Shown: positions 44,905 through 57,811, counted from the stretch's first letter. The stretch: DNA of 64,000 bases from an uncultured Bifidobacterium sp. (GCA_964491875.1 CAZBIC010000037.1:4567-68566); one strand, 5' to 3'. A program made the numbers and translations. The notes: generated by a model not told the origin, from the letters alone.

Positions 44905-47424
44905 ATGAATGCCGCCGTTGCAATCCTGGTCCTTGCGTTCACCGCCGCCAATTCGGCTCGCGGCGCCGCCAACGACTATTTGCGGCAGGTGAAGCCCGTG
45001 CTTGCCGAGCATTGTTACCGTTGCCACGGCGCGTCGCAGCAGAAGGGCGGACTTCGGCTCGACACCGTCCCGGCAGCGCTGAAAGGTGGCGAACACGGTC
45101 CCGCCTTTAAACCCGGCGCGAGCGCGCAGAGCCTCCTGATGCAAGCCGTGCGCGGGGATCACGACAGCATCTCCCGGATGCCTTACAAGAAGGCGCCGCT
45201 ATCTGAACCAGCCATCGCTGCTCTTGCTCGTTGGATCGATGCGGGCGCGGAAGCACCCGCCGATGAAGAGTCGGATCGAAATGTTCACTGGTCTTTCAAG
45301 GCTCCGGTCCGACCGAACGTTCCGGCGGCCAGCTCCTCCAAGCCCAAGCTTCATCCCATCGACGCTTTCATTCGCGAGCGTCTCGCGCACGAGAAGATTC
45401 GTCCTTCGCCGGAGGCCGATCGCGCCACGCTTCTCCGCCGGGTCAGCCTCGACCTCACCGGACTTCCGCCGACTCCCGAAGAGGTGGATCGCTTCGTGAA
45501 GGATCGCGCACCCGACGCCTACGAGCGGATCGTCGAGAAGCTCCTCGCCTCACCTCATCACGGGGAGCGCTGGGCTCGCTGGTGGCTGGATGCCGCGCGC
45601 TACGCGGACTCCAACGGCTACAGCATCGATGCCCCGCGATCGATTTGGAAGTATCGCGACTGGGTGATTCAGGCGCTGAACCGCGACATGCCGTTCGATC
45701 AATTCACGGTCTGGCAGCTCGCCGGCGACCTCATCGCCACCAACTCGCTTCCGCCCAACGTTTCGAAACTCGACCCACTCATCGCCACCGGCTTTCATCG
45801 CAACACGCAGATCAATCAGGAGGGCGGCATTGATCCGGAACAGTTCCGTGTGGAATCGGTGATGGACCGCGTGAACACCACCGCCACGGTCTGGCTCGGC
45901 GTCACCTTCGCCTGCGCGCAATGTCACGATCACAAGTTCGATCCGTTCACGCAGCGCGAGTACTACCAGTTCTACGCCTTCTTCAACTCAACGATCGAGG
46001 ACGGTCACGGCAAAGGCGCGCCCGACGGAATGCTTGAAGTGCCCGGCGAATTGGAACCTACCGCCAGCACTCCGGCTGAACTCGCCGAAGCGGAAGCTGA
46101 ATTGGAGCGCTATCTGAACACCAAGGGCAGCGAACTCGCGCGCTGGGAACAATCCTTGAACGCCGAAGCGCGGTCGAAACTGAAAGGCGATGTTCGCAAG
46201 GCGATCGACAAACCCTTTGCCGAACGAACCGTCCGCCAGAAGCGCGCGACGTACGCCGCGTTCAAGCCCGAAGATCCGAACTTCAAGCAACGCGCCGCGA
46301 AGCTCACCCAACTGGAGAAGAACCAGCCCAAGCCCGTCACCACGCTCGTCATGCGCGAGTTGCCCCAGCCGCGCGAAACGCGAATCTTCACCAAAGGCGA
46401 CTTCACCCGGCCCGCGGCGAAAGTTCTTCCGGACGTTCCCGCCATTCTCCATCCGTTCAACGGCGGCACCAACGCCACCCGGGCCGACCTCGCGCGATGG
46501 CTGGTTGATCAACGCAATCCACTCCTGGCCCGCGTCATCGTGAATCGCGTCTGGCAACAATACTTTGGCCGCGGCCTCGTCGAAACTGAGAACGACTTCG
46601 GCACTCAAGGTTCCCAGCCCTCGCACCCCGAACTGCTGGACTGGCTGGCGTGCGAGTTCATGCAACCAACCAGCACCAGCTCTCCTCCCTCTCCTGGGGG
46701 AGAGGGCCGGGGTGAGGGCGGACAAGAGAATTCGCGAAGCGCCAATTCACCTCTCGCCTGGTCGTTGAAGCATCTCCATCGGCTCATCGTCACCTCGGCG
46801 ACCTACCGTCAGTCTTCCAAAGTTCGGTCCGATCTCGCCCAATTGGATCCCAACAACAAGCTGCTCGCCCGCCAAAGCCGACTTCGCCTCGATGCCGAGA
46901 TCGTTCGCGATGTCGCCCTCTCCGCCAGCGGCTTGCTGAATCCGAAGGTGGGCGGCCCAGGCGTCTTTCCGCCGCAGCCCGATGGCGTCATGAACCTCGG
47001 CCAGTCCCGACGCGAATGGAAGGCTAGCACCGGTCCCGATCGCCATCGCCGCGGGATGTACACGTTCTTCTGGCGCGCCACGCCGCATCCCACGCTCACC
47101 GTCTTCGACAGCGCCGATGGCTTCAGCGCCTGCACCCGGCGCATCCGCTCAAACACTCCCCTGCAAGCGCTCACGCTTCTCAACGACGAGGCGTTCTTCG
47201 AGTTCGCTCAGGCACTCGGCCGCCGGATTGAAGGCTCTGCCCTGCACACGGACGCAGCGCGCATCGACCACGCTTTTCAACTGTGCGTCGCGCGCAAGCC
47301 TTCGGCGGCGGAACGTCGGAGCCTTCTCGCCCTGCTGGAATCCGAACGCGCCAACGCCGCAGACGCCTGGACTACGGTCGCCCGCGTGTTATTGAACCTC
47401 GACGAAACCATCACTCGCGAATGA
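44905..47424 (+). CDS. PSCyt1 / DUF1549 / DUF1553 (planctomycete-type cytochrome c domain) protein
   Basis: CYRCHG haem motif with GGLRLD, then RVSLDLTGLPPTPEEVDRFV (DUF1549) and CAQCHDHKFDPFTQREYYQFYAFFN (DUF1553). Carries an in-frame insertion at about 46668-46760. Confidence 0.9.
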   Translation: MNAAVAILVLAFTAANSARGAANDYLRQVKPVLAEHCYRCHGASQQKGGLRLDTVPAALKGGEHGPAFKPGASAQSLLMQAVRGDHDSISRMPYKKAPLSEPAIAALARWIDAGAEAPADEESDRNVHWSFKAPVRPNVPAASSSKPKLHPIDAFIRERLAHEKIRPSPEADRATLLRRVSLDLTGLPPTPEEVDRFVKDRAPDAYERIVEKLLASPHHGERWARWWLDAARYADSNGYSIDAPRSIWKYRDWVIQALNRDMPFDQFTVWQLAGDLIATNSLPPNVSKLDPLIATGFHRNTQINQEGGIDPEQFRVESVMDRVNTTATVWLGVTFACAQCHDHKFDPFTQREYYQFYAFFNSTIEDGHGKGAPDGMLEVPGELEPTASTPAELAEAEAELERYLNTKGSELARWEQSLNAEARSKLKGDVRKAIDKPFAERTVRQKRATYAAFKPEDPNFKQRAAKLTQLEKNQPKPVTTLVMRELPQPRETRIFTKGDFTRPAAKVLPDVPAILHPFNGGTNATRADLARWLVDQRNPLLARVIVNRVWQQYFGRGLVETENDFGTQGSQPSHPELLDWLACEFMQPTSTSSPPSPGGEGRGEGGQENSRSANSPLAWSLKHLHRLIVTSATYRQSSKVRSDLAQLDPNNKLLARQSRLRLDAEIVRDVALSASGLLNPKVGGPGVFPPQPDGVMNLGQSRREWKASTGPDRHRRGMYTFFWRATPHPTLTVFDSADGFSACTRRIRSNTPLQALTLLNDEAFFEFAQALGRRIEGSALHTDAARIDHAFQLCVARKPSAAERRSLLALLESERANAADAWTTVARVLLNLDETITRE

Positions 47425-48875
47425 ATCCCCACGACGAGGCGCCCATTCTTCAGCACCTGACGCGAAGACACTTCTTCAGCCGCTGCGCGCTCGGCCTTGG
47501 GTCCGTCGCGCTGGGCTCGCTCCTGAATCCTTCCCGCAACATGGCCGCGCCCACGTTGCACTCGGACAATCCGATGGCGCCCCGCCAGCCCATGTTCACG
47601 CCGCGCGCGAAGAGCATCATCTACCTCTTCATGGCCGGCGGCCCCTCGCAACTGGAGTTGTTCGACTACAAACCGCGGCTCGTCGAACTCAACGGCCAGC
47701 CCATTCCGCAGTCGTACATCGAGGGAAAACGTTTCGCGTTCATGGACAGCAGCCACGGCACCAAACTGCTCGGCACGCGACGTCAGTTCAAACAACACGG
47801 GCAATCTGGCCGGTGGGTTTCGAATCTCTTCCCGCACACGGCAGGCATCGTCGATGACGCCACGTTCGTCACCACCTGCGCTGCCAGTTTGTTCAACCAC
47901 GCTCCCGCGAAGCTGTTCATGAACACTGGCTCCGGCCAGTTCGGACGTCCGAGCATGGGCTCATGGGTAACCTACGGTCTGGGCAGTGAATCGTCGGATC
48001 TTCCCGGCTTCGTCGTCCTCCAGAGCGGTCCGCGCGGTCCACGCGGCGGCGCCGTGAATTGGGCCAGCGGCTTTCTGCCCACCTCGTTTCAAGGCGTGCC
48101 TCTTCGCAGCACCGGGGATCCGATCCTGAACATTTCCAGTCCAAAAGGAATCTCCGCCGCACGCCAGCGCCAGTGCATCGACACCGTACGCGATTTGAAT
48201 CTCAAACGTCTCGTCGAAACCGGCGACCAGGAAATCTCCACGCGCATCTCCGCCTACGAGATGGCGTATCGCATGCAATCGAGCGCGCCAGAGCTCATCG
48301 ATTTATCCGGCGAATCCGAGGCGACGCTGAAGCTCTACGGCGTGGACAAGGATAAGCCGTCCTTCGCCCGCAACTGTCTGCTCGCGCGGCGCCTGATCGA
48401 GCGCGGCACGCGTTTCGTCCAGCTCTATCACACGAACTGGGACAGCCACGGCGGTCCCGGCGAGAATCTGGAGAACGATTTCGAGAAGGTCTGTCGCGAC
48501 GTGGATCAAGGCCAGGCCGCACTCGTTCACGATCTGAAAGCACGCGGACTTCTCGATGACACGCTGGTCATCTGGGGCGGAGAATTCGGACGCACTCCCA
48601 TGGGCGAGAACCGCGACACCACCGGTCGCAACCATCACATCGACGCCTTCACCATGTGGTTCGCCGGCGGCGGCGTGAAACGCGGCGGCATCATTGGGCA
48701 GACGGATGAACTGGGCTTCAATCCCGTCGAGGATCGCTGTCACGTTCACGACATCCACGCGACGATCCTTCACCTGCTGGGCATCCACCACGAGAAGCTC
48801 ACCTTCAAGTTCCAAGGCCGCGACTTCCGCCTCACCGATGTCCACGGCGACATCATCCACAAGTTGTTGGCGTAG
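47421..48875 (+). CDS. DUF1501 (sulfatase-fold) protein with Tat signal
   Basis: TRRHFFSRCALGLGSVALG leader, YLFMAGGPSQLELFDYKP and GGEFGRTP. ATGA overlap with the DUF1553 gene, the classic pairing. Confidence 0.9.
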   Translation: MNPHDEAPILQHLTRRHFFSRCALGLGSVALGSLLNPSRNMAAPTLHSDNPMAPRQPMFTPRAKSIIYLFMAGGPSQLELFDYKPRLVELNGQPIPQSYIEGKRFAFMDSSHGTKLLGTRRQFKQHGQSGRWVSNLFPHTAGIVDDATFVTTCAASLFNHAPAKLFMNTGSGQFGRPSMGSWVTYGLGSESSDLPGFVVLQSGPRGPRGGAVNWASGFLPTSFQGVPLRSTGDPILNISSPKGISAARQRQCIDTVRDLNLKRLVETGDQEISTRISAYEMAYRMQSSAPELIDLSGESEATLKLYGVDKDKPSFARNCLLARRLIERGTRFVQLYHTNWDSHGGPGENLENDFEKVCRDVDQGQAALVHDLKARGLLDDTLVIWGGEFGRTPMGENRDTTGRNHHIDAFTMWFAGGGVKRGGIIGQTDELGFNPVEDRCHVHDIHATILHLLGIHHEKLTFKFQGRDFRLTDVHGDIIHKLLA

Positions 48876-50299: not shown

Positions 50300-50925
50300 T
50301 ACCGTAGGTGCGCCATCTTTGTAGAACCAACAGGATAGAGATTTTCAAGCTCCGTCAGGAGCGGCATCCTCTGCGCATGGCCAACACCTACTCCCAAATC
50401 TACATCCAGGTCGTGTTTGCCGTCGAAGGCAGGCAGAATCTCATCAAACCGGAATACAACGACGAGCTGCAGAAATACATCACCGGCATTGTATCCGCTC
50501 AGAGGCACAAACTGATCGCCATAAACAACATGCCGGATCATCTGCACTTGCTTGTTGGCCTGCGACCCGATGCGGCGCTCTCCGAACTTGTGCGAGACAT
50601 CAAGGCGAACTCGTCCCGTTTCATCAGCGAAAAGCGCTGGGTGCCGGGCCGGTTTTCGTGGCAGGAAGGTTTCAGTGCGTTCTCCTATTCGCGTTCGCAA
50701 CTCAGCACGGTGATTCGCTACATCGAGAACCAGCAGAAGCATCATGCCAGGAAATCGTTTCTCGAAGAATACACCGCGCTGCTCGACAAGTTTGAGGTGG
50801 AATACGACCAACGCTACATCTTCAAACCCATCGAGCGGTGAAAGCGTCGGCAGCGCCGTAGGTGCGCCATCTTTGTAGAACCAACGGGATATAAATTCTC
50901 AAGCTCCGTCAGGAGCGACATCTTC
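50299..50925 (+). mobile_element. IS200/IS605-like RAYT unit: Y1 transposase gene flanked by ~70-bp direct copies of its REP-like sequence
   Basis: ccgtaggtgcgccatctttgtagaaccaac.ggata.a.att.tcaagctccgtcaggagcg.catc occurs at 50299-50368 and again at 50856-50925, on either side of the transposase CDS. Confidence 0.65.
50377..50841 (+). CDS. REP-associated tyrosine transposase (RAYT; IS200-type Y1/HUH transposase)
   Basis: MANTYSQIYIQVVFAVEGRQNLI..., the HUH motif in MPDHLHLLVGL, and C-terminal SRSQLSTVIRYIENQQKHH. 154 aa, the typical size. Confidence 0.85.
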   Translation: MANTYSQIYIQVVFAVEGRQNLIKPEYNDELQKYITGIVSAQRHKLIAINNMPDHLHLLVGLRPDAALSELVRDIKANSSRFISEKRWVPGRFSWQEGFSAFSYSRSQLSTVIRYIENQQKHHARKSFLEEYTALLDKFEVEYDQRYIFKPIER

Positions 50926-51450
50926 CGGTGTGATACGGAAGGTGCCGCCCCTACGGGGCTGGGGATTTATTTGGGACGGTTTTTCTACAACGATGCCGCG
51001 CCTACGGCGCTCTCGATGAATCCCCCCTTCTAGCGCCGTAGGTGCGCCATCTCTGTAGAACCAACAGGATAGAGATTCTAAAGCTCCGTCAGGAGCGACA
51101 TCTTCCGGTGTGATACGGAAGGTGCCGCCCCTACGGGGCTGGGGATTTATTTGGGACGGTTTTTCTACAAAGATGCCGCGCCTACGGCGCTCTCGATGAA
51201 TCCCCCCTTGTAGCGCCGTAGGTGCGCCATCTTTGTAGAACCAACGGGATATAAATTCTCAAGTTCCGTCAGGAGCGACATCTTCCGGTGTGCTGCGGAA
51301 GGTACCACCCCTACGGGGCTGGGGATCCATTTTGGACGGTTTTTCTACAAAGATGCCGCGCCTACGGCGCTCTCGATGAATCCCCCTTGTAGCACCGTAG
51401 GTGCGCCATCTTTGTAGAACCAACAGGATATAGATTCTCAAGCTCCGAAA
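50853..51450 (+). repeat. Tandem array (3.3 copies, 180-bp period) of hairpin-rich REP/MITE-like units
   Basis: Unit starts are at 50853, 51033, 51213 and 51392 (partial). Each unit has ~25-bp terminal inverted repeats (gtaggtgcgccatctttgtagaacc / ggtttttctacaaagatgccgcgcctac). Internal hairpins are cttccg..cggaag, gctccgtcaggagc and cccctacgggg. Confidence 0.85.
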
Positions 51451-51473
51451 GGGCGACCCAACCTTCAACCTGG

Positions 51474-51519: not shown

Positions 51520-51759
51520 ATGCCGAAACGTGACACCGTCCTTGCCGCCCTCGGGCAAAACGTCCGCCGCCGCCGTGAGGCGCGCGACCTGACGCAGGAG
51601 AAGCTGGCTGAGAAAGCCGGGCTCGATCCCACCTACATCTCCGGCATCGAACGCGGGTTGCGGAATCCCGGCATCAAGAACGTTGCGAAACTCGCCAAGG
51701 CTCTCGGCTTCAGCACCGCGGAACTTTGCAAAAGGGGGGTCTCGGCTCGAACATTGTAG
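51520..51759 (+). CDS. XRE-family HTH protein 1 (controller/C-protein-like)
   Basis: 79 aa. HTH_3 pattern: LGQNVRRRREARDLTQEKLAEKAGLDPTYISGIERGLRNPGIKNVAKLAKALG. Confidence 0.85.
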   Translation: MPKRDTVLAALGQNVRRRREARDLTQEKLAEKAGLDPTYISGIERGLRNPGIKNVAKLAKALGFSTAELCKRGVSARTL

Positions 51760-51798
51760 CCGATAGTCCACAGACGAAATGGCATCGTCCTGCACATC

Positions 51799-52035
51799 AT
51801 GCAGAAAATGCCAACAAAGGATCGGATCCTCGTTTCTTTCGGCCAAAATGTCGCTCGAATACGCGACCAGCGGGGGCTTTCCCAAGACAAACTTGCTGAG
51901 AAGGCCGACCTTGATCGCACCTACATCAGTGGCATCGAGCGCGGCGTCCGTAATCCCGGCGTTAAGACGGTCATTCGCATCGCGAAGGCGCTGCATGTCA
52001 CCGTGGGCGAATTGTGCAAGGGGGTGGAAGCGTGA
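51799..52035 (+). CDS. XRE-family HTH protein 2 (tandem paralogue of HTH1)
   Basis: About 60% identical by eye to HTH1 (FGQNVARIRDQRGLSQDKLAEKADLDRTYISGIERGVRNPGVKTVIRIAKAL). By homology the start may be the second Met at 51808. Confidence 0.85.
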   Translation: MQKMPTKDRILVSFGQNVARIRDQRGLSQDKLAEKADLDRTYISGIERGVRNPGVKTVIRIAKALHVTVGELCKGVEA

Positions 52036-53861
52036 ACCGGAGGCAAAAGATCTCCGATGGAGTCATCCGCGAGGAATCCACTTCATATCGGGTTTCATCC
52101 GCTAATTCTCCTTCTTCGCTGCAGTGTAATGTGCCGTCACTCACGTGCATCGATCTGTTCTGCGGCTGTGGCGGGTTCAGCCTCGGAATGCAGCGCGCCG
52201 GGTTCAAGGTTCTCGCCGCCATCGACTTCAACGAAGAAGCGGTGGCAACGTTCAAAGCGAATTTTCCGAAGGAGACGCTGGCGCTCAGCAAGGATCTAAC
52301 GACTTTCACGCCCGACAAGTTGATCGCCAAGCTCCACACGAACCAGGTGGACGTGATTGTCGGAGGACCGCCCTGTCAGGGCTTTAGTACGGTGCGTCAA
52401 GTGGACGCCGCGAATCACGGCTCGCGTGTGAAGCGCGACAAGCGCCGATACCTGTTCCGTTCCTTTTTGGATTATGTAAACGCGTTTCGCCCGCGCGTGT
52501 TTGTCATGGAGAACGTCCTCGGCATCCAGAGTGCCGCCAAGGGCAAGTTCTTTACCCTCGTGCAGTCCGAGGCGCGCAAACTTGGCTATCGGGTTCATTC
52601 CCAAGTCGAGGAATCTTGGAAGCTGGGCGTGCCGCAGAAACGCCGCCGTCAGCTCGTCATCGGCGTCCGAAATGATGTGCCGGGATATTTCCCCGGCGAA
52701 CTGGGTCCGGCAAAGCGCGCCTTCAGAGCGCCGGTCTCCGACCCGGCGCGTTCGTGTTCTGACTCGACCTCCGGCACTACTCCAGCCGCTCCGACTCTCT
52801 GGGATGCCATCGGAGATTTGCCGCCGCTCGTCGCAGGAGCGGGCGAAGAAGAACGCGATTACGATTTGAAACTTCGCGCGGAGCATCTTACAAGGCGCGA
52901 CCAAAGAGCCACACACTACCTCGAACAGGTGCTCGAAGTCCATCACACTACCAAGCTCACCGCGCACCGCGCCCGCCCCCACAGCGAGCGTGACCTGCGC
53001 GACTTCGCCCGGATGCTGGAGGGTGAAACCGGCGACCAAACCATCGCTCGCGGTGAAGAGATGGAGTTTCCCTATAAACGAAGCGTGTTTCTCGACCGCT
53101 ACACCCGCCAGCACCGCGAACGGCTCTGCTCGACGATTGTGGCGCATCTCGCGAAGGACGGCCTGATGTTCATCCATCCTACGCAAAACCGTTCGCTCAC
53201 GCCGCGCGAGGCCGCGCGCGTGCAAAGTTTCCCGGACTGGTTTCAGTTTCCCGTGGCCCGGACGCATCAGTTCCGCATCATCGGCAACGCCGTGCCACCG
53301 CTGGTGGCCGAGGCTGTGGGCGAGGAGTTGACGCGATTTCTCGCAGCACCGCTCCAGGACATGGCGAATCGTCGTGGACACGGTATTGATTCGGAACACA
53401 CCGGGTCGGAGACCGGCGCTCCGTTGCCCGCCACCCGTTCCGCAGCCGCGCATCAGTTGGAATCCCTCGCCCGCCTCGACCGGCGGCAGCTCCGCGCCCT
53501 GTCCACCAGGGAATTTCTCTGCGGCTGGCGCGCTCTCCTGTTTCTCTTTCCCGACCTTCATCCCGACAGCGCACAGGATCACGGGGGTGACTCGGAAATC
53601 ATCAGTGCCGACCAGCTTGCCTTGCCCGGTTACGAGGAACTGCTTGCAAAGAGATTTGTCCGCAGCGGCTGGCCCGTCGCTCTGGAAGCCATCGGCGTCG
53701 AAGCCTGGCGGCGGGTTGATGCCCGAGAGCTCACGGACAAGGAATTTTACTGCGCGGAGGCGCAGCGAGCAGGGTTGGCGACATCAAAGTCAGCGGTTTC
53801 GACAGGGGGGACAAATCATGGCAGCAGAATGGATATTCAGGGAACTCCGTCCGGGAGATAA
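52032..53861 (+). CDS. C5 cytosine-specific DNA methyltransferase with ~190-aa C-terminal extension
   Basis: Motif I DLFCGCGGFSLG, motif IV GGPPCQGFS, VMENV, QKRRR, RSLTPREAARVQSFPD and motif X GNAVPPLVAEAVG. The GTG at 52032 makes a GTGA overlap with the HTH2 stop (alternative GTG at 52014). Confidence 0.92.
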   Translation: MNRRQKISDGVIREESTSYRVSSANSPSSLQCNVPSLTCIDLFCGCGGFSLGMQRAGFKVLAAIDFNEEAVATFKANFPKETLALSKDLTTFTPDKLIAKLHTNQVDVIVGGPPCQGFSTVRQVDAANHGSRVKRDKRRYLFRSFLDYVNAFRPRVFVMENVLGIQSAAKGKFFTLVQSEARKLGYRVHSQVEESWKLGVPQKRRRQLVIGVRNDVPGYFPGELGPAKRAFRAPVSDPARSCSDSTSGTTPAAPTLWDAIGDLPPLVAGAGEEERDYDLKLRAEHLTRRDQRATHYLEQVLEVHHTTKLTAHRARPHSERDLRDFARMLEGETGDQTIARGEEMEFPYKRSVFLDRYTRQHRERLCSTIVAHLAKDGLMFIHPTQNRSLTPREAARVQSFPDWFQFPVARTHQFRIIGNAVPPLVAEAVGEELTRFLAAPLQDMANRRGHGIDSEHTGSETGAPLPATRSAAAHQLESLARLDRRQLRALSTREFLCGWRALLFLFPDLHPDSAQDHGGDSEIISADQLALPGYEELLAKRFVRSGWPVALEAIGVEAWRRVDARELTDKEFYCAEAQRAGLATSKSAVSTGGTNHGSRMDIQGTPSGR

Positions 53862-55722
53862 AGACCGACAACCAACACAGGGAGAGTTCTTCGCAACGGA
53901 CGCAATCAAGTCCGTTGCAGAGGCGTTGGTCCGCGAAAGTGTTCAAAACACTCTTGATGCCGGACTCAAAATTAATGGCCATCCGGTTCGTGTGCGTTTT
54001 CATCTAGCGAAGGGGAATCACGCGCTCGCAGCCACGGACGTTCAACGTTACTTCAAAACTGGCTGGCCGCATTTTGAAGCAAAGGGGAACGGCTTGGATA
54101 ACATTCCGTCAGCCCATGATGCTTGTCCATTCTTGGTGGTCGAAGACTTTGGAACAACTGGTCTCATCGGTGACATCAAGCAATGGCGGCATATTCCGGG
54201 AGACAAAAACCCGTTCTATTTCTTCTTCCGCACCGAAGGCCGTTCGGGAAAGGGCGAGGAAGACCGTGGGCGCTGGGGTGTAGGCAAGTATGTGTTCCCG
54301 CGTTCGAGTGAGATCAACTCTTTTCTGGCTTTGACGGTCCGCAACGACGACAAGAAACGCTTTCTCATGGGGCAGGCAGTATTGAAATCGCACACAGTCG
54401 GAACGAAATACTTCACACCAGACGGAGACTTTGGAAACGATGATGGAGAGGGGTTTGTTCTGCCGGAGGACGACAAAAGCGTACTTGACCGCTTTTCAAA
54501 AGATTTCGGCCTGAAACGAAAGAACGAGCCGGGATTGTCGGTTGTTGTGCCTTGGGTGGATGACACAATCAACCTTGATGGGCTTCTGCAAGCAGTGATT
54601 GAAGACTACTTTCACCCCATTCTTGCGGGCGAATTGGTTGTAGATGTCTCAAATGGAACGAAGGAGTTGGAAGTCTCAGCCGATTCGCTTGGCGAGATCT
54701 GCAAACAGCTTGGCGCCGAGTTCGAAGCCAAGATGCTTCCAGTATTGAAGCTCTCCAAATGGGCACGAGGGCTATCGGATGATGCATTCGTAACTCTCAA
54801 GCCCGCGAATCCCGACCGGCCCAAGTGGGAGGCGGCGCTTGTTCCGGTTGAATTGATACCGAGTCTCCGTGAGAAATTCCGAGCCGGCGAAGCACTGGCT
54901 GTAAAAGTTCCTTTGACTGTCCGCGAAAAGAGAGGTGACGCACGTGAATCGTTCTTCAAAATCTTCCTCATGCACGACGGGAGTGAAGAGGGAAATCCGC
55001 TTTTCGTTCGTGATGGGATCATCATCTCAGACGTTCGCGGAAACTGGGTCGCGGGTGTTCGATCTATTGTCGTCATTGATCACGGGCCGCTCGCCAAACT
55101 TCTAGGTGATTCGGAGAACCCTGCTCACACGCAGTGGCAAAAAGACCGCGAGCACTTTCGACACAAATACACCTACGGAAAATCCTACATCGATTTCGTA
55201 ACTCAAAGCGTCTCGATGTTTGTTCGCTGCTTGAACGAATCAGATGAGCAGCCTGACAAGGATTTGTTACGGGAGATTTTTTCGATTCCCAAGAAGCCTG
55301 AATCGAACGACCCAAAGGAAAAATCCAAGAGGCGTAAGCGTAATAAGGGTGAGGTTATCAATCCCGAACCAGCGGTTGAACCCAAGAAACGACGTTTCAC
55401 GCTCTCAAAGGTCGCTGGAGGGTTCACCGTAACACGCGGACAACCGGATGCCTTAACACCAGCCGCCTTGGACATCTCGGTGGCCTACGACCGGCGCCGC
55501 GGTAATCCGCTTAAGAAGTACATCACTGCTGATTTCAGAATTAACGAATCTCCAATTAAGATCGAATGTGTTGGCGCAAAACCAGCAGAACGGCAGAAGA
55601 ACCGACTGGTAGTGAATATCACTCAGCCAGATTTCAGCGTCACTGTGTCTGGTTTCGACGAGAACCGGGATCTGTTCGTCGATGTGAAAGCGAAGGAGGA
55701 GATCAATGATCCGAAGACTTAA
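53818..55722 (+). CDS. GHKL-superfamily ATPase (MORC/sacsin/MutL-like N-terminal Bergerat fold), 634 aa
   Basis: N-box ESVQNTLDA (53935-53961), G1 box EDFGTTG (54142-54162) and G2 box GRWGVGK (54268-54288). The ATG at 53818 is preceded by agggggg and overlaps the MTase 3' end by 44 nt. The C-terminal ~400 aa are unrecognised and include a K/R-rich patch (KEKSKRRKRNKG). Confidence 0.8.
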   Translation: MAAEWIFRELRPGDKDRQPTQGEFFATDAIKSVAEALVRESVQNTLDAGLKINGHPVRVRFHLAKGNHALAATDVQRYFKTGWPHFEAKGNGLDNIPSAHDACPFLVVEDFGTTGLIGDIKQWRHIPGDKNPFYFFFRTEGRSGKGEEDRGRWGVGKYVFPRSSEINSFLALTVRNDDKKRFLMGQAVLKSHTVGTKYFTPDGDFGNDDGEGFVLPEDDKSVLDRFSKDFGLKRKNEPGLSVVVPWVDDTINLDGLLQAVIEDYFHPILAGELVVDVSNGTKELEVSADSLGEICKQLGAEFEAKMLPVLKLSKWARGLSDDAFVTLKPANPDRPKWEAALVPVELIPSLREKFRAGEALAVKVPLTVREKRGDARESFFKIFLMHDGSEEGNPLFVRDGIIISDVRGNWVAGVRSIVVIDHGPLAKLLGDSENPAHTQWQKDREHFRHKYTYGKSYIDFVTQSVSMFVRCLNESDEQPDKDLLREIFSIPKKPESNDPKEKSKRRKRNKGEVINPEPAVEPKKRRFTLSKVAGGFTVTRGQPDALTPAALDISVAYDRRRGNPLKKYITADFRINESPIKIECVGAKPAERQKNRLVVNITQPDFSVTVSGFDENRDLFVDVKAKEEINDPKT

Positions 55723-56470
55723 CTATACTGGGCGAATAAAGATTCATCGTTCGGACATAAAGCTCGCAACGCGGGAAGCGAACGGCGCGTTCAGCTTTGA
55801 CGCCAGCCTGAAGCTTATTGACTACGAGTTACCCGCAGAAGCGCTCGTGTTTGTTGAGGCGTATCGTCAGACAACGTGGATGCGATTTCCGTTCGGCACG
55901 GTAGCAAACCTTCAACCGCCAGCGAACCGCGAGTTGAACGAGTTTGAATCCGTTGAACACATCAAGTTTCGGGTCAAGGTCACCCAGGCGCTTGATGAGC
56001 ACATTCTGCTCGCCGTCGCTGATCGCATTCCGCTGGCGCTGCCGAGCGAGGACGCGGACTGTGAAAGCATTCTGCCAGTTCATCCGAGGGAACTGGGCGA
56101 TGAATTGTGGCAGGTAGAGATGGTCGATGAGCCATGTCTTCTGGTTAACAAGTCTGCGACGCCAGACTGGCGACAGCTCACGCAATCGCCATTGTTCGTT
56201 TCGCTCGTTTATCCCGCCGTTTTGCGCCAGATACTCACGCATGTTCTCTCCGAGGGTCACCGGGACACCGATGATGAGAATGAATGGCGTTCCAAATGGC
56301 TCCGCTTCGCCACGCTCATGCCCGGAGTCGATCCGGATATTCCAGGGAAGGACGACGGCGAGGACGCGGCCATGCGCTGGATGGAAGATGCCGTGGCGGG
56401 GTTCGCGAGGAAGCTGGCGTTGAAGGAGAAATTTTCCGCCGTGTGGCAGCAACCAAAAGGGGTCCAATGA
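55706..56470 (+). CDS. Hypothetical protein (254 aa), operon partner of the GHKL ATPase
   Basis: Strong SD aaggagga lies 5 nt upstream of the ATG. The gene overlaps the ATPase gene by 17 nt. Composition is balanced and no motif is recognised. Confidence 0.7.
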   Translation: MIRRLNYTGRIKIHRSDIKLATREANGAFSFDASLKLIDYELPAEALVFVEAYRQTTWMRFPFGTVANLQPPANRELNEFESVEHIKFRVKVTQALDEHILLAVADRIPLALPSEDADCESILPVHPRELGDELWQVEMVDEPCLLVNKSATPDWRQLTQSPLFVSLVYPAVLRQILTHVLSEGHRDTDDENEWRSKWLRFATLMPGVDPDIPGKDDGEDAAMRWMEDAVAGFARKLALKEKFSAVWQQPKGVQ

Positions 56471-57183
56471 AAGTTGCGCGCTTGAACGAGGGCGGCATTT
56501 CCACCTTTGCCGGCTGGCTGGAAACTCTGAAACAGGGTGGTTCGGTGCAGGCTCCCGTTTCGCTGCTGACCAGCCCTGAAGCCATCGAGGCTCTGCCTGT
56601 AACAGCGGATGTTGAACTGAGAGCTTTTACGAATCGCTTCGAGGCGGCGGAATATCTATTCCATCGCTTCACCGAAGCCGGACTGACTGACGTGGACCGA
56701 GATCGTGGGTTGTGGGCGTGGCTTTCGCTCTTTTACTTTGATTCCGTCTGCCCGGCGGGAAAAGGCGGCGTTCGCAAGCCCGGCGCACTAGCGCGTCATG
56801 TTCCTGAACCTGGAAATTTCCAACGGTATTACCGGCACCTGCTCGGCGGGCCGTATCGCATCTACCGCGCGCATCGGGATGATCCGAAGCGGGCGATGGC
56901 ATTGTTGTGCCAGCCATTGAACACCCCCGGAGAAGTGGTCGAGCAGATTGCATCTCGCCAGGAACTCGTGACGAATCGCGGGATCATGGAACTGGCCACT
57001 CGCCTGTACTTCAATCCTGACACAAAGCTGAAGAAGCATGGTGTCGAAGGCAAAGGCGGCGGCACTCCTCGCCGACTTTCTGATGTTTTAGATCAATTTG
57101 ATCTGACATGGGACTTGTATGCTTCCACCGGAGAGGAACTCGCGACAGTAATGCCCAAGGAGTTCGCCAGATTTCTTTCGTAG
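56467..57183 (+). CDS. Hypothetical protein (238 aa), operon partner of the GHKL ATPase
   Basis: ATGA start/stop overlap with the preceding gene and an SD-like aagggg upstream. Begins MKVARLNEGG. No motif recognised. The track's longer ORF (56284) overlaps the previous gene out of frame. Confidence 0.65.
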   Translation: MKVARLNEGGISTFAGWLETLKQGGSVQAPVSLLTSPEAIEALPVTADVELRAFTNRFEAAEYLFHRFTEAGLTDVDRDRGLWAWLSLFYFDSVCPAGKGGVRKPGALARHVPEPGNFQRYYRHLLGGPYRIYRAHRDDPKRAMALLCQPLNTPGEVVEQIASRQELVTNRGIMELATRLYFNPDTKLKKHGVEGKGGGTPRRLSDVLDQFDLTWDLYASTGEELATVMPKEFARFLS

Positions 57184-57322: not shown

Positions 57323-57811
57323 ATGCCTGACGTGTTCACCAAGACCAAGCGCAGCGATGTGATGTCGCGCATCCGCTCGCGTGGGAACAAGGACACGGAG
57401 CTGGCGCTGGCGAAGGTGTTCCGCGCGGAGGGAATTACGGGGTGGAGAAGACATGTGAAGTTGAGAGCCGGGGAGTTGAGTGTTGAGAGATCGAATGCGC
57501 GATCCTCTCAACACTCAACTCAAACACTCTCTCAACTGATCGTCCGTCCGGATTTCGTCTTTCCAAAACTGCGCCTGGCGGTGTTCGTGGACGGGTGTTT
57601 CTGGCACGCGTGTCCGCTGCACGCGACCAAGCCGAAGGGGAATGCGGCGTTCTGGCGGAGGAAATTCGCCACGAACAAGGCGCGGGATCGACTGGTGACG
57701 CGCACGTTGCGGCGCGACGGATGGCGCGTGCTCCGCATCTGGGAACACGAGTTAAAGAAACCTGCCCGCGTGATCGCGAAGATGCGCAAGGCTTTGGCTC
57801 CTGCGCAGTGA
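57323..57811 (+). CDS. vsr: Very-short-patch repair endonuclease (Vsr) carrying an in-frame palindromic insertion
   Basis: TKRSDVMSRIRSRGNKDTEL, RPDFVFPKLRLAVFVDGCFWHACPLH and DGWRVLRIWEHEL. An extra ~25 aa (AGELSVERSNARSSQHSTQTLSQL) lies between the N-terminal helix region and the PDF motif. Confidence 0.88.
   Translation: MPDVFTKTKRSDVMSRIRSRGNKDTELALAKVFRAEGITGWRRHVKLRAGELSVERSNARSSQHSTQTLSQLIVRPDFVFPKLRLAVFVDGCFWHACPLHATKPKGNAAFWRRKFATNKARDRLVTRTLRRDGWRVLRIWEHELKKPARVIAKMRKALAPAQ
57473..57521. repeat. Perfect 17-bp-stem palindrome inside vsr
   Basis: gagttgagtgttgagag (57473-57489) is the exact reverse complement of ctctcaacactcaactc (57505-57521), with a 15-nt loop. Imperfect outer arms are agttgagag (57459-57467) and ctctcaact (57529-57537). 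Confidence 0.9.

Follow-up and report, generated by a model that had tools for sequence, protein, structure and literature searches.

The three genes that follow a cytosine methylase gene in an operon of an uncultured Bifidobacterium sp. probably encode the restriction arm of an ATP-dependent, restriction-modification-like defence system, a reading to which we assign a probability of roughly 0.55. The operon lies in a stretch of 64,000 nucleotides (nt; GCA_964491875.1 CAZBIC010000037.1:4567-68566), hereafter the window, and the element under study, 53818-57183 (+), consists of three overlapping genes that we call A (634 amino acids, aa), X (254 aa) and Y (238 aa). On one strand the gene order reads HTH_3, HTH_3, Dcm, A, X, Y, Vsr, with frames overlapping or nearly abutting; the overlaps measure 44 nt between the Dcm gene and A, 17 nt between A and X and 4 nt (ATGA) between X and Y. 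Given that these open reading frames (ORFs) overlap and that G-rich, Shine-Dalgarno-like stretches precede the starts of A and of Y, the packing of the genes suggests that A, X and Y are produced together. The surroundings of Dcm, Vsr and helix-turn-helix (HTH) genes, together with a near-obligate link between the triad and a methylase across phyla, make a restriction-modification-like role the leading reading.

The link to the methylase emerges from a scan of 185,579 species, each represented by a single genome, which returned 269 relatives of A; the best 79 loci of the 269 were analysed, and all of their ORFs were searched with hidden Markov models. The 79 loci span Verrucomicrobiota, Planctomycetota, Acidobacteriota, Chloroflexota, Bacteroidota, Gammaproteobacteria, Nitrospirota, Desulfobacterota, Gemmatimonadota, Actinomycetota and others. 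Forty-six carry A, X and Y (two pairs among these look like duplicates), 10 carry A and X only and 23 carry A alone. A C5 methylase is found in 34 of the full triads, in none of the 10 A+X loci and in none of the 23 A-only loci. When a locus is counted as informative if a methylase is present or at least 3 kb of flank is available on both sides, 34 of 37 informative full triads are linked to a C5 methylase, at a distance of 0-4216 nt (median about 30 nt), so that the linkage is directly supported. Likewise, Vsr is present in 27 of the 46. None of the 33 loci lacking Y has Dcm, and 15 of these 33 have full flanks. Fisher's test on 34/46 against 0/33 gives p ~1e-12, a value that is inflated, as the Y-less loci are mostly related planctomycetes and the loci are not phylogenetically independent. 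The placement of Dcm varies: it lies upstream or downstream on the same strand, or is convergent together with Vsr, and this variation resembles the modular arrangement of R and M genes. The methylase gene comes first in the window operon and in 10 of the 34 linked loci. Across the loci the triad's neighbours include defence and mobile genes, namely type I-C CRISPR-Cas, Mrr, an Abi protein, PLD and DUF1998 genes, insertion sequence (IS) elements and a serine recombinase. No triad copies were found on viral contigs, which we count as neutral.

The loci without Y form a group of their own. The A-only loci include L029, L036, L038-L048, L050, L051, L060, L063, L067 and L070-L072, and the A+X loci L032, L052, L054-L056, L058, L059, L062 and L068. 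Nearly all are planctomycete metagenome-assembled genomes (MAGs) in which A is 38-41% identical to that of the window, and they sit among housekeeping genes (hisG, dapF, an SDR gene, a xylose-isomerase-like TIM barrel). The third ORFs downstream of the planctomycete A+X pairs were tested as divergent copies of Y and rejected as not Y. As A from one Y-less locus (L048) keeps all ATPase and ExxxH motifs intact, these planctomycete copies may have been domesticated or repurposed.

Could the triad simply travel with the methylase? It might be a separate system for defence or abortive infection, or one that is type IV-like and modification-dependent, sharing islands with Dcm-Vsr, the methylase not being its self-protection. 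Some full triads (L057, L079, L085) indeed have no neighbouring methylase, and the methylase families paired with the triad are heterogeneous. However, the typical Dcm gap of 0-40 nt, the overlapping frames and a linkage that extends across at least ten phyla and archaea exceed mere co-residence in islands; the loss of Y coincides with the loss of Dcm, and a system attacking 5-methylcytosine could not coexist with its own Dcm. We consider such independence quite improbable.

Protein A (53818-55722, +, ATG start) has more than 1657 homologues in a protein search. Its AlphaFold2 model, made from an alignment of 120 homologues (mean predicted local distance difference test score, pLDDT, 85.8), confirms a GHKL ATPase with a Bergerat fold, as the earlier note on this DNA had claimed from the sequence alone. 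The model is divided into a GHKL domain (about residues 1-250), a transducer domain (about 251-488), a disordered basic linker (489-526) and a C-terminal beta-sandwich (527-626). Foldseek searches against the PDB yield 83 matches at E <= 0.001, with alignments of about 480-760 columns. The top matches are subunit B of topoisomerase VI (Topo VI-B; 9o0g_B, 1.4e-11, and 1mx0, 1.9e-11), followed by GyrB/ParE 43K (about 1e-8 to 1e-6), Hsp90 (1.3e-7) and the ATPase module of SMCHD1 (1.5e-6); the Foldseek probability is 1.00 for all 50 PDB matches listed, drawn from Topo VI-B, GyrB/ParE, Hsp90 and SMCHD1. In the model the transducer is formed by a beta-sheet and helices at 253-487, and the alignments to the two-domain 43K GyrB/ParE and Topo VI-B structures cover at least about 480-560 columns. 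Because these alignments span both domains, A is predicted to have a Bergerat domain and, after it, a transducer domain.

The ATP-binding motifs are intact, in the order and spacing expected of GHKL enzymes, and are exactly those previously read from the sequence. The N-box, or motif I, ESVQNTLDA (residues 40-48, 53935-53961, +), is invariant in the 120 homologues; its ExxxNxxD residues E40, N44 and D47 align to the N-boxes of MutL, GyrB and HtpG, and E40 is expected to be the general base and N44 the Mg ligand. The G1 box, or motif II, EDFGTTG (residues 109-115, 54142-54162, +; E109, D110, T113 and G115 invariant), reads DxGxxG, one residue longer than the canonical DxGxG, and D110 ends beta-strand 105-111 of the model. 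The G2 box, or motif III, GRWGVGK (residues 151-157, 54268-54288, +; G151, G154, G156 and K157 invariant), is canonical and aligns to GQFGVGFY of HtpG. Eleven residues invariant in the 120 homologues, E40, N44, D47, E109, D110, G115, G118, G151, G154, G156 and K157, are kept at 26% identity. The fold of A and the integrity of its ATPase motifs are thus directly supported. An ExxxHxxW signature (E433, H437 and W440; LLGDSENPAHTQWQ, 55099-55140, +) is conserved like the ATP motifs. This LLGDSENPAHTQW motif lies in a transducer loop after helix 423-432, its conservation equals that of the ATP-binding boxes, and it is kept in the Rhizobium, haloarchaeal and Synechococcus relatives of A; the invariant D431, E433 and H437 could either sense the gamma-phosphate for the transducer or bind a metal. 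The basic patch noted before (KEKSKRRKRNKGEV...KKRRF, residues 500-527) is present as described. It falls in the disordered, Lys/Arg-rich linker at residues 489-526 (55282-55395, +; pLDDT <50 at 489-522), whose net charge is +8 in the window protein and which is basic in most homologues (median +4, range -5 to +10 across the 120). The C-terminal domain (527-626) is eight-stranded and has invariant polar residues of its own, with an acidic cluster of D558, D572, D614 and D618.

The likeness of A to the sacsin/MORC-type subgroup, noted earlier, finds no specific support. Neither A nor its homologue P0120 has a Pfam match at E 0.1, HATPase_c_3 (PF13589) included; the best structures are Topo VI-B and GyrB/ParE, with SMCHD1 and Hsp90 lower, and only the N-box is MutL/MORC-like (50% identity over 16 residues to E. 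coli MutL). Comparison of A with E. coli MutL, GyrB and HtpG by hhalign aligns the correct motifs, yet at a probability of only 2-3%, too low for A to be assigned to any one clade of GHKL proteins. NCBIfam and PHROG likewise gave no match to A, and neither A nor the profile of its family found a credible relative among PDB sequences. Weak matches of that profile do include histidine-kinase ATP-binding domains (E ~2), the one finding that leans towards reading A as a sensor kinase or a chaperone whose neighbours are unrelated to it, and X and Y as spurious ORFs. That explanation has next to no probability: the Foldseek matches are GHKL-plus-transducer enzymes and not kinases, no DHp or HisKA domain was detected in A by the Pfam scan, and X and Y are neighbours of conserved order with invariant residues. 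A protein of 389 aa (P0473), obtained in the search for X representatives, was considered as an A-X fusion and rejected; an in-frame internal deletion joins the first ~115 residues of A (N-box to G1 box) to a full X, and the protein comes from a decayed locus and is no true fusion.

Hundreds to thousands of homologues, a conserved gene order and many invariant residues in the alignments indicate that X and Y are genuine proteins, co-inherited with A, a point that is directly supported. Protein Y (56467-57183, +; 810 homologues detected) is a candidate effector, predicted to be all-alpha. Its AlphaFold2 model (pLDDT 92.0, predicted TM score 0.90) consists largely of helices, and a long, ordered loop (~95-126) holds most of the invariant residues (C95, P96, R103, R110, Y121, Y122, R123 and H124); other invariant residues include W83, W85, N170 and R203. 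The core of Y is basic (isoelectric point, pI, 9.3). The model has no Foldseek relative in the PDB (best E 6) or BFVD, and the sequence has no match in Pfam, NCBIfam, PADLOC, PHROGs or PDB sequences. About ten Y homologues show weak matches to PF19866 (DUF6339), the window Y itself none. Comparison of the Y family with four true DUF6339 proteins by hhalign gives a probability of 57% (E 1.1e-4, 151 columns), and a D-x-GLWxWL motif occurs in both. Given the weak matches of its homologues, the hhalign result and the common motif, Y is probably a divergent DUF6339 protein; our literature searches found no paper on DUF6339. The Y profile also matched an acetolactate synthase small subunit (2pc6, E 9e-5), a match rejected as spurious, the region being helical in the model and 2pc6 not being recovered by Foldseek. 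X or Y as a split Spo11/Topo VI-A was rejected as well, given that neither has a Toprim or Topo VI-A family match and that Y has no fold match in the PDB.

Protein X (55706-56470, +) lies directly behind A in every complete triad. We detect 499 homologues; in a collection of 1.84 billion proteins its profile reaches 2088 cluster representatives, of which 930 score E <= 1e-30. X has no match in Pfam, NCBIfam, PADLOC or PHROGs, and profiles of 28 and 150 sequences gave nothing credible among PDB sequences. Judged by eye from the alignment, it seems to be rich in strands in the N-terminal half and helical in the C-terminal one. X is acidic (pI 5.2), and consistently so at 181-225, where 150 homologues have a median net charge of -8. 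Few polar residues are kept across the wider family (N6, T8, R10, E51, R60, R89 and R174), and so sparse a set appears to fit a metal-dependent nuclease badly. The N-terminal peptides of X and Y are alike and both highly conserved: M-I-R-R-L-N-Y-T-G-R in X (55706-55735) and M-K-x-x-R-L-N-x-x-G-I in Y (56467-56496). In the model of Y this peptide is a short beta-strand (residues 4-6), and the likeness could mark a common docking element or be a coincidence. The two partner proteins are thus unrecognisable by family searches, as had been claimed, and the absence of a visible effector domain is borne out for A, X and Y by family and PDB sequence searches and for A and Y also by fold: PD-(D/E)xK, HNH, PLD, GIY-YIG and half-pipe nucleases were found neither in A and Y by sequence or fold nor in X by sequence.

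How might such a system work? The C5 methylase would mark host DNA, Vsr would repair the T:G mismatches left by deamination of 5-methylcytosine, and the HTH proteins would time expression. A, X and Y, once co-produced, would assemble as one complex. Upon ATP binding A would dimerise to act as a clamp on DNA or a gate for it, like Topo VI-B, GyrB, MutL and MORC, and its basic linker would help to hold the DNA. On DNA without the methyl mark, the ATPase cycle of A would license an effector that damages or blocks the DNA, with Y as the most likely effector and X as an adaptor or regulator. Here we infer the formation of the complex, its discrimination of unmethylated DNA and the identity of the effector subunit. 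We favour Y as the leading effector candidate because it shows stronger conservation than A or X in 29 of the 41 loci in which all three were aligned (in L011, for example, A is 47, X 43 and Y 53% identical), because it has a basic core and a loop dense in invariant Cys, His, Tyr and Arg residues, and because it is lost together with the methylase, a coincidence that is expected if Y is the toxic part. X is likelier to be an adaptor or regulator since it is acidic and variable, and we speculate that it may pair with the basic linker of A.

Several observations weigh against this interpretation. The Dcm subfamily varies among triads: in L005, A, X and Y are 64, 70 and 72% identical to those of the window and Dcm only 29%, whereas in L003 and L004, with A, X and Y as close to the window as those of L005, Dcm is 64-65% identical. 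Where the methylase family is swapped, no extra divergence is seen in A, X or Y, and such swapping does not fit a sequence-specific recognition that co-evolves with the methylase. Three informative full triads have no detected adjacent C5 methylase: L057 near Mrr, L079 near an MrfA-type helicase and L026 between IS elements with a leftover Vsr. Nor did the three ORFs scanned beside a Rhizobium megaplasmid triad include a methylase. Left unprotected, a restriction arm would be expected to be toxic, except where the methylase is encoded at a distance or the locus is inactive. Two more full triads lack a detected methylase at truncated loci, L080 near type I-C CRISPR-Cas with only 0.9 kb of upstream flank in the sequence and L024 near a serine recombinase with an incomplete downstream flank. 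Moreover, the effector step is one that we infer entirely, as no DNA-damaging domain is recognisable in A or Y, and literature searches returned no experimental evidence for any member of the triad family.

The free exchange of methylases without extra divergence of A, X or Y suggests either that the triad reads the mark generically or that it borrows its target information from the methylase. Generic reading of 5-methylcytosine would explain why related triads are paired with unrelated methylases, and it leads to a more speculative proposal, which we consider unlikely: the triad would be a restriction machine without a classical nuclease, in which a Topo VI-B-like gate reads 5-methylcytosine generically and passes unmarked DNA to Y, an enzyme of new fold and new chemistry, or else entraps the DNA. 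The damaging or blocking chemistry of Y would then be built on its invariant Cys/His/Tyr/Arg loop. A related explanation dispenses with cutting of the DNA. A, X and Y might form a methylation-sensitive clamp or compaction machine that traps, loops or silences unmethylated DNA, in the manner of MORC and SMCHD1 or of the replication block of BREX and DISARM, with X and Y as loader, reader or latch subunits. The lack of a nuclease fold in A or Y agrees with it, as do the likeness of A to ATP-gated clamps including SMCHD1, its basic tether, the acidic X with few conserved residues of catalytic type across the wider family, and methylase swapping without co-divergence of the triad. Yet the invariant Cys, His, Tyr, Arg, Asn and Asp on the long structured loop of Y look more like an active site than a scaffold, and both the D431/E433/H437 motif of A and its D558, D572, D614 and D618 cluster could bind metal. 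We regard the clamp as unlikely, and return to the restriction-modification-like reading with the methylase itself.

The methylase gene (52014-53861, +) encodes a Dcm-type C5 DNA cytosine methyltransferase (Pfam DNA_methylase 2.5e-63, TIGR00675 2.8e-56, PADLOC MTase_II 1e-91), which also matches the DrmMII models of PADLOC (7e-80). Its start possibly lies 18 nt downstream, and public gene calls give 609 aa. The methyltransferase core (~residues 44-440) is followed by a C-terminal extension of ~170 aa (53350-53861, residues ~445-615) with the motif LxPGLHPD..DHG..SGWPV..EAWRR..EFYC.EAQ.AG. The extension is common to eight loci with Dcm upstream of A, and in L010 (8277-8840) and L012 (9838-10350) it is a free-standing ORF of ~120 aa between Dcm and Vsr. 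It has no Pfam match, and a profile search of PDB sequences gave no credible relative; it may be an extra module of the system. Vsr, a very-short-patch repair endonuclease of 162 aa (57323-57811, +; Pfam Vsr 1.6e-16, TIGR00632 1.9e-27), lies close to Dcm wherever both occur, and seven triads have Dcm without Vsr; Vsr is therefore the partner of Dcm rather than of A-X-Y.

This bears on whether the triad might instead serve repair, with a MutL-like A that, together with X and Y, recruits or stimulates Vsr or controls Dcm at T:G mismatches and so aids very-short-patch repair. MutL is itself a GHKL-plus-transducer ATPase that interacts functionally with Vsr, according to work cited in PMC2292703. 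The N-box of A is most like that of MutL, and Vsr stands in the window operon and beside 27 of the 46 triads. But it tracks Dcm, being missing from those seven triads that have Dcm, and full triads without Dcm or Vsr are found near CRISPR-Cas or Mrr. To our knowledge most natural Dcm-Vsr pairs have no A-X-Y. The HTH controllers and the methylase-first order are typical of restriction-modification systems, and PADLOC picked up the sister family of the triad, described below, through its defence context. All in all, an accessory role in repair seems improbable.

More distant relatives extend the association beyond the 79 loci. A Halomicrobium urmianum plasmid carries Dcm, a 632-aa GHKL protein, a 345-aa protein and a DUF6339 protein, with PLD and DUF1998 genes adjoining; on a Synechococcus elongatus plasmid, proteins of 643 and 342 aa are followed by DUF6339, Dcm and then an Abi gene. 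On a Halobaculum plasmid the set (620 aa, 336 aa, DUF6339) has Dcm ~2.5 kb off on the opposite strand, and on a Deinococcus plasmid Dcm-Vsr lies ~2.4 kb upstream of ORFs of 452, 235 and 276 aa; the last of these, the only one of the three compared, has a partial DUF6339 match (35% identity over 41% of the query). The architecture of GHKL protein, middle gene, DUF6339 and Dcm thus recurs on plasmids of Synechococcus, Deinococcus, Halomicrobium and Halobaculum, which supports the restriction-modification-like reading. By hhalign, the GHKL protein of Synechococcus is a homologue of A (96.6%). On the Rhizobium megaplasmid, an A of 25% identity precedes clear homologues of X and Y (hhalign 98.2 and 98.8%).

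The haloarchaeal proteins match PDC-M33A (2.1e-22), PDC-M33C (5.9e-14) and Pfam DUF6339 (1.2e-20), the first two being models of a candidate system listed by PADLOC. PDC-M33 and the window triad are alike in having three genes in the same order, of similar sizes and with the GHKL gene first, and true PDC-M33 loci also adjoin Dcm. They differ in that the window A matches PDC-M33A (PDLC04582; 4.7e-20) only over the GHKL part (profile positions 24-289 of 627), and that X and Y have no PADLOC match to PDC-M33B or PDC-M33C at E 0.1. Given this partial match of A and the lack of B and C matches, the window triad appears to be a separate, larger branch, sister to PADLOC's candidate GHKL / B / DUF6339 system. 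The defence context, the match of A to PDC-M33A and those of the haloarchaeal triad to PDC-M33A and PDC-M33C support the restriction-modification-like reading as well. Our literature searches, which included GHKL-with-methylase defence systems, found no paper on PDC-M33 or describing a GHKL/DUF6339 triad.

There is precedent for such an arrangement. MORC and paraMORC1-5 ATPases, which join a GHKL to an S5 domain, were described in restriction-modification neighbourhoods rich in cytosine methylases and Vsr, and these ATPases were proposed to draw the DNA between the site of recognition and that of cleavage into a loop (Iyer, Abhiman & Aravind 2008, PMC2292703). The neighbourhood of the window triad is of this kind, with Dcm in 34 of 37 informative triads and Vsr in 27 of 46. 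With paraMORC2, A has in common an N-terminal GHKL and S5/transducer arrangement, linkage to C5 methylase and Vsr, and a sporadic, laterally mobile distribution; the cyanobacterial relative of A agrees with the distribution reported for paraMORC2. The ExxxH motif at the C terminus of the paraMORC2 S5 domain (PMC2292703) fits the invariant E433-N-P-A-H437 of A, a comparison made by description only. In contrast, none of the SF-II helicase and/or RE-fold/HNH nuclease partners of the paraMORC systems is conserved beside the window-type triad; in their stead A has X and the DUF6339-like Y, and A has no HATPase_c_3 match. VcSduA, of paraMORC3 type (Shedu type I-D), is a validated anti-phage protein whose ATPase is proposed to gate the effector (PMC12137116). 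It is, like the role proposed for A, a GHKL ATPase in anti-phage defence; unlike the window system it is a single protein with a fused PD-(D/E)xK domain (DUF4263) and no methylase, whereas the window has no detected nuclease domain, two separate partners and a methylase. By analogy, the paraMORCs near Dcm/Vsr and the validated VcSduA lend support to the reading that we prefer. HEF_HK and Response_reg_2 genes beside a C5 methylase and Vsr have been read as paraMORC-derived (Bellieny-Rabelo 2021, PMC8011034). They resemble the triad in pairing a GHKL protein with a small partner within Dcm/Vsr neighbourhoods, yet A, X and Y have no Pfam match to HATPase_c_3, HEF_HK, HATPase_c or Response_reg_2.

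Other likenesses are more distant. Topo VI-B and GyrB/ParE 43K, the best structural matches of A, have the same GHKL-plus-transducer arrangement of an ATP-operated gate, but identity is only ~10%, and no match to a Topo VI-A-like partner (5Y-CAP plus Toprim) was found in the sequences of X and Y or in the fold of Y; nothing suggests strand passage by the triad. BREX and DISARM are similar to the role proposed here in that a methylase marks self and a multi-protein ATPase complex blocks unmarked DNA without a classical restriction endonuclease, and DISARM class 2, as the window operon, has a C5 methylase. In contrast, the window system, with three genes, is much smaller and has no homologues of PglZ, BrxC, DrmA or DrmB. 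With type II restriction-modification systems it shares the hallmarks of a methyltransferase of cognate type (the Dcm described above) and two HTH_3 genes upstream.

GHKL ATPases in Dcm/Vsr restriction-modification contexts have been known computationally since 2008, and the sister family is already catalogued as a candidate; what is new is this widespread, previously uncharacterised triad with its DUF6339-like subunit of new fold. The role of GHKL proteins inside restriction-modification systems predicted in 2008 has so far been tested only in the nuclease-fused VcSduA. The triad is common (269 matches among the species genomes, thousands from metagenomes), small and almost always linked to a methylase. 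From its mechanism one would learn in what way the discrimination of self and non-self by methylation is tied to an ATP-gated clamp, a question common to BREX, DISARM and eukaryotic MORC/SMCHD1 silencing, and solving it would give DUF6339 and the X family a function. Should Y or X turn out to be an enzyme of a new kind that acts on DNA, the restriction enzymes would gain a catalytic fold not seen among them before.

At the upstream end of the operon, two HTH_3 genes precede Dcm. The first (51520-51759, +; Pfam HTH_3 9.3e-19) encodes an XRE/Cro-type protein of 79 aa, a candidate controller, and the second (51799-52035, +; 1.6e-17) one of 78 aa. The two genes (51520-52035) are tandem paralogues, 62% identical in protein by tblastn and containing a 129-nt direct repeat of 71%. 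Related loci have only one HTH gene, and a single HTH gene precedes Dcm in L005, L008, L016 and L083. An imperfect inverted repeat of 23 nt (51464-51486/51505-51527, 78% complementary) lies across the start codon of the first HTH gene and could be an operator, as for the controller proteins of restriction-modification systems. Further upstream, an ORF for an IS200-like Y1 transposase (50308-50841; Pfam Y1_Tnp 2.3e-24) is followed, within 50308-51460, by tandem units of ~180 nt with 29-nt inverted repeats (TTCTACAAAGATGCCGCGCCTACGGCGCT) and recurring small hairpins. The array looks like one of the repetitive extragenic palindrome (REP) or bacterial interspersed mosaic element (BIME) type adjoining a gene like those of REP-associated tyrosine transposases (RAYT).

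The GC content is 0.515 over A and X (54001-56000) against ~0.60 for the rest of the window, a dip consistent with horizontal acquisition. The closest homologues of A are from verrucomicrobial MAGs. Two upstream ORFs of 839 and 530 aa (44905-48875) presumably correspond to the paired PSD/DUF1553 and DUF1501 genes that we take to be typical of Planctomycetota-Verrucomicrobiota, and this ORF pair agrees with the verrucomicrobial origin of the nearest A homologues.

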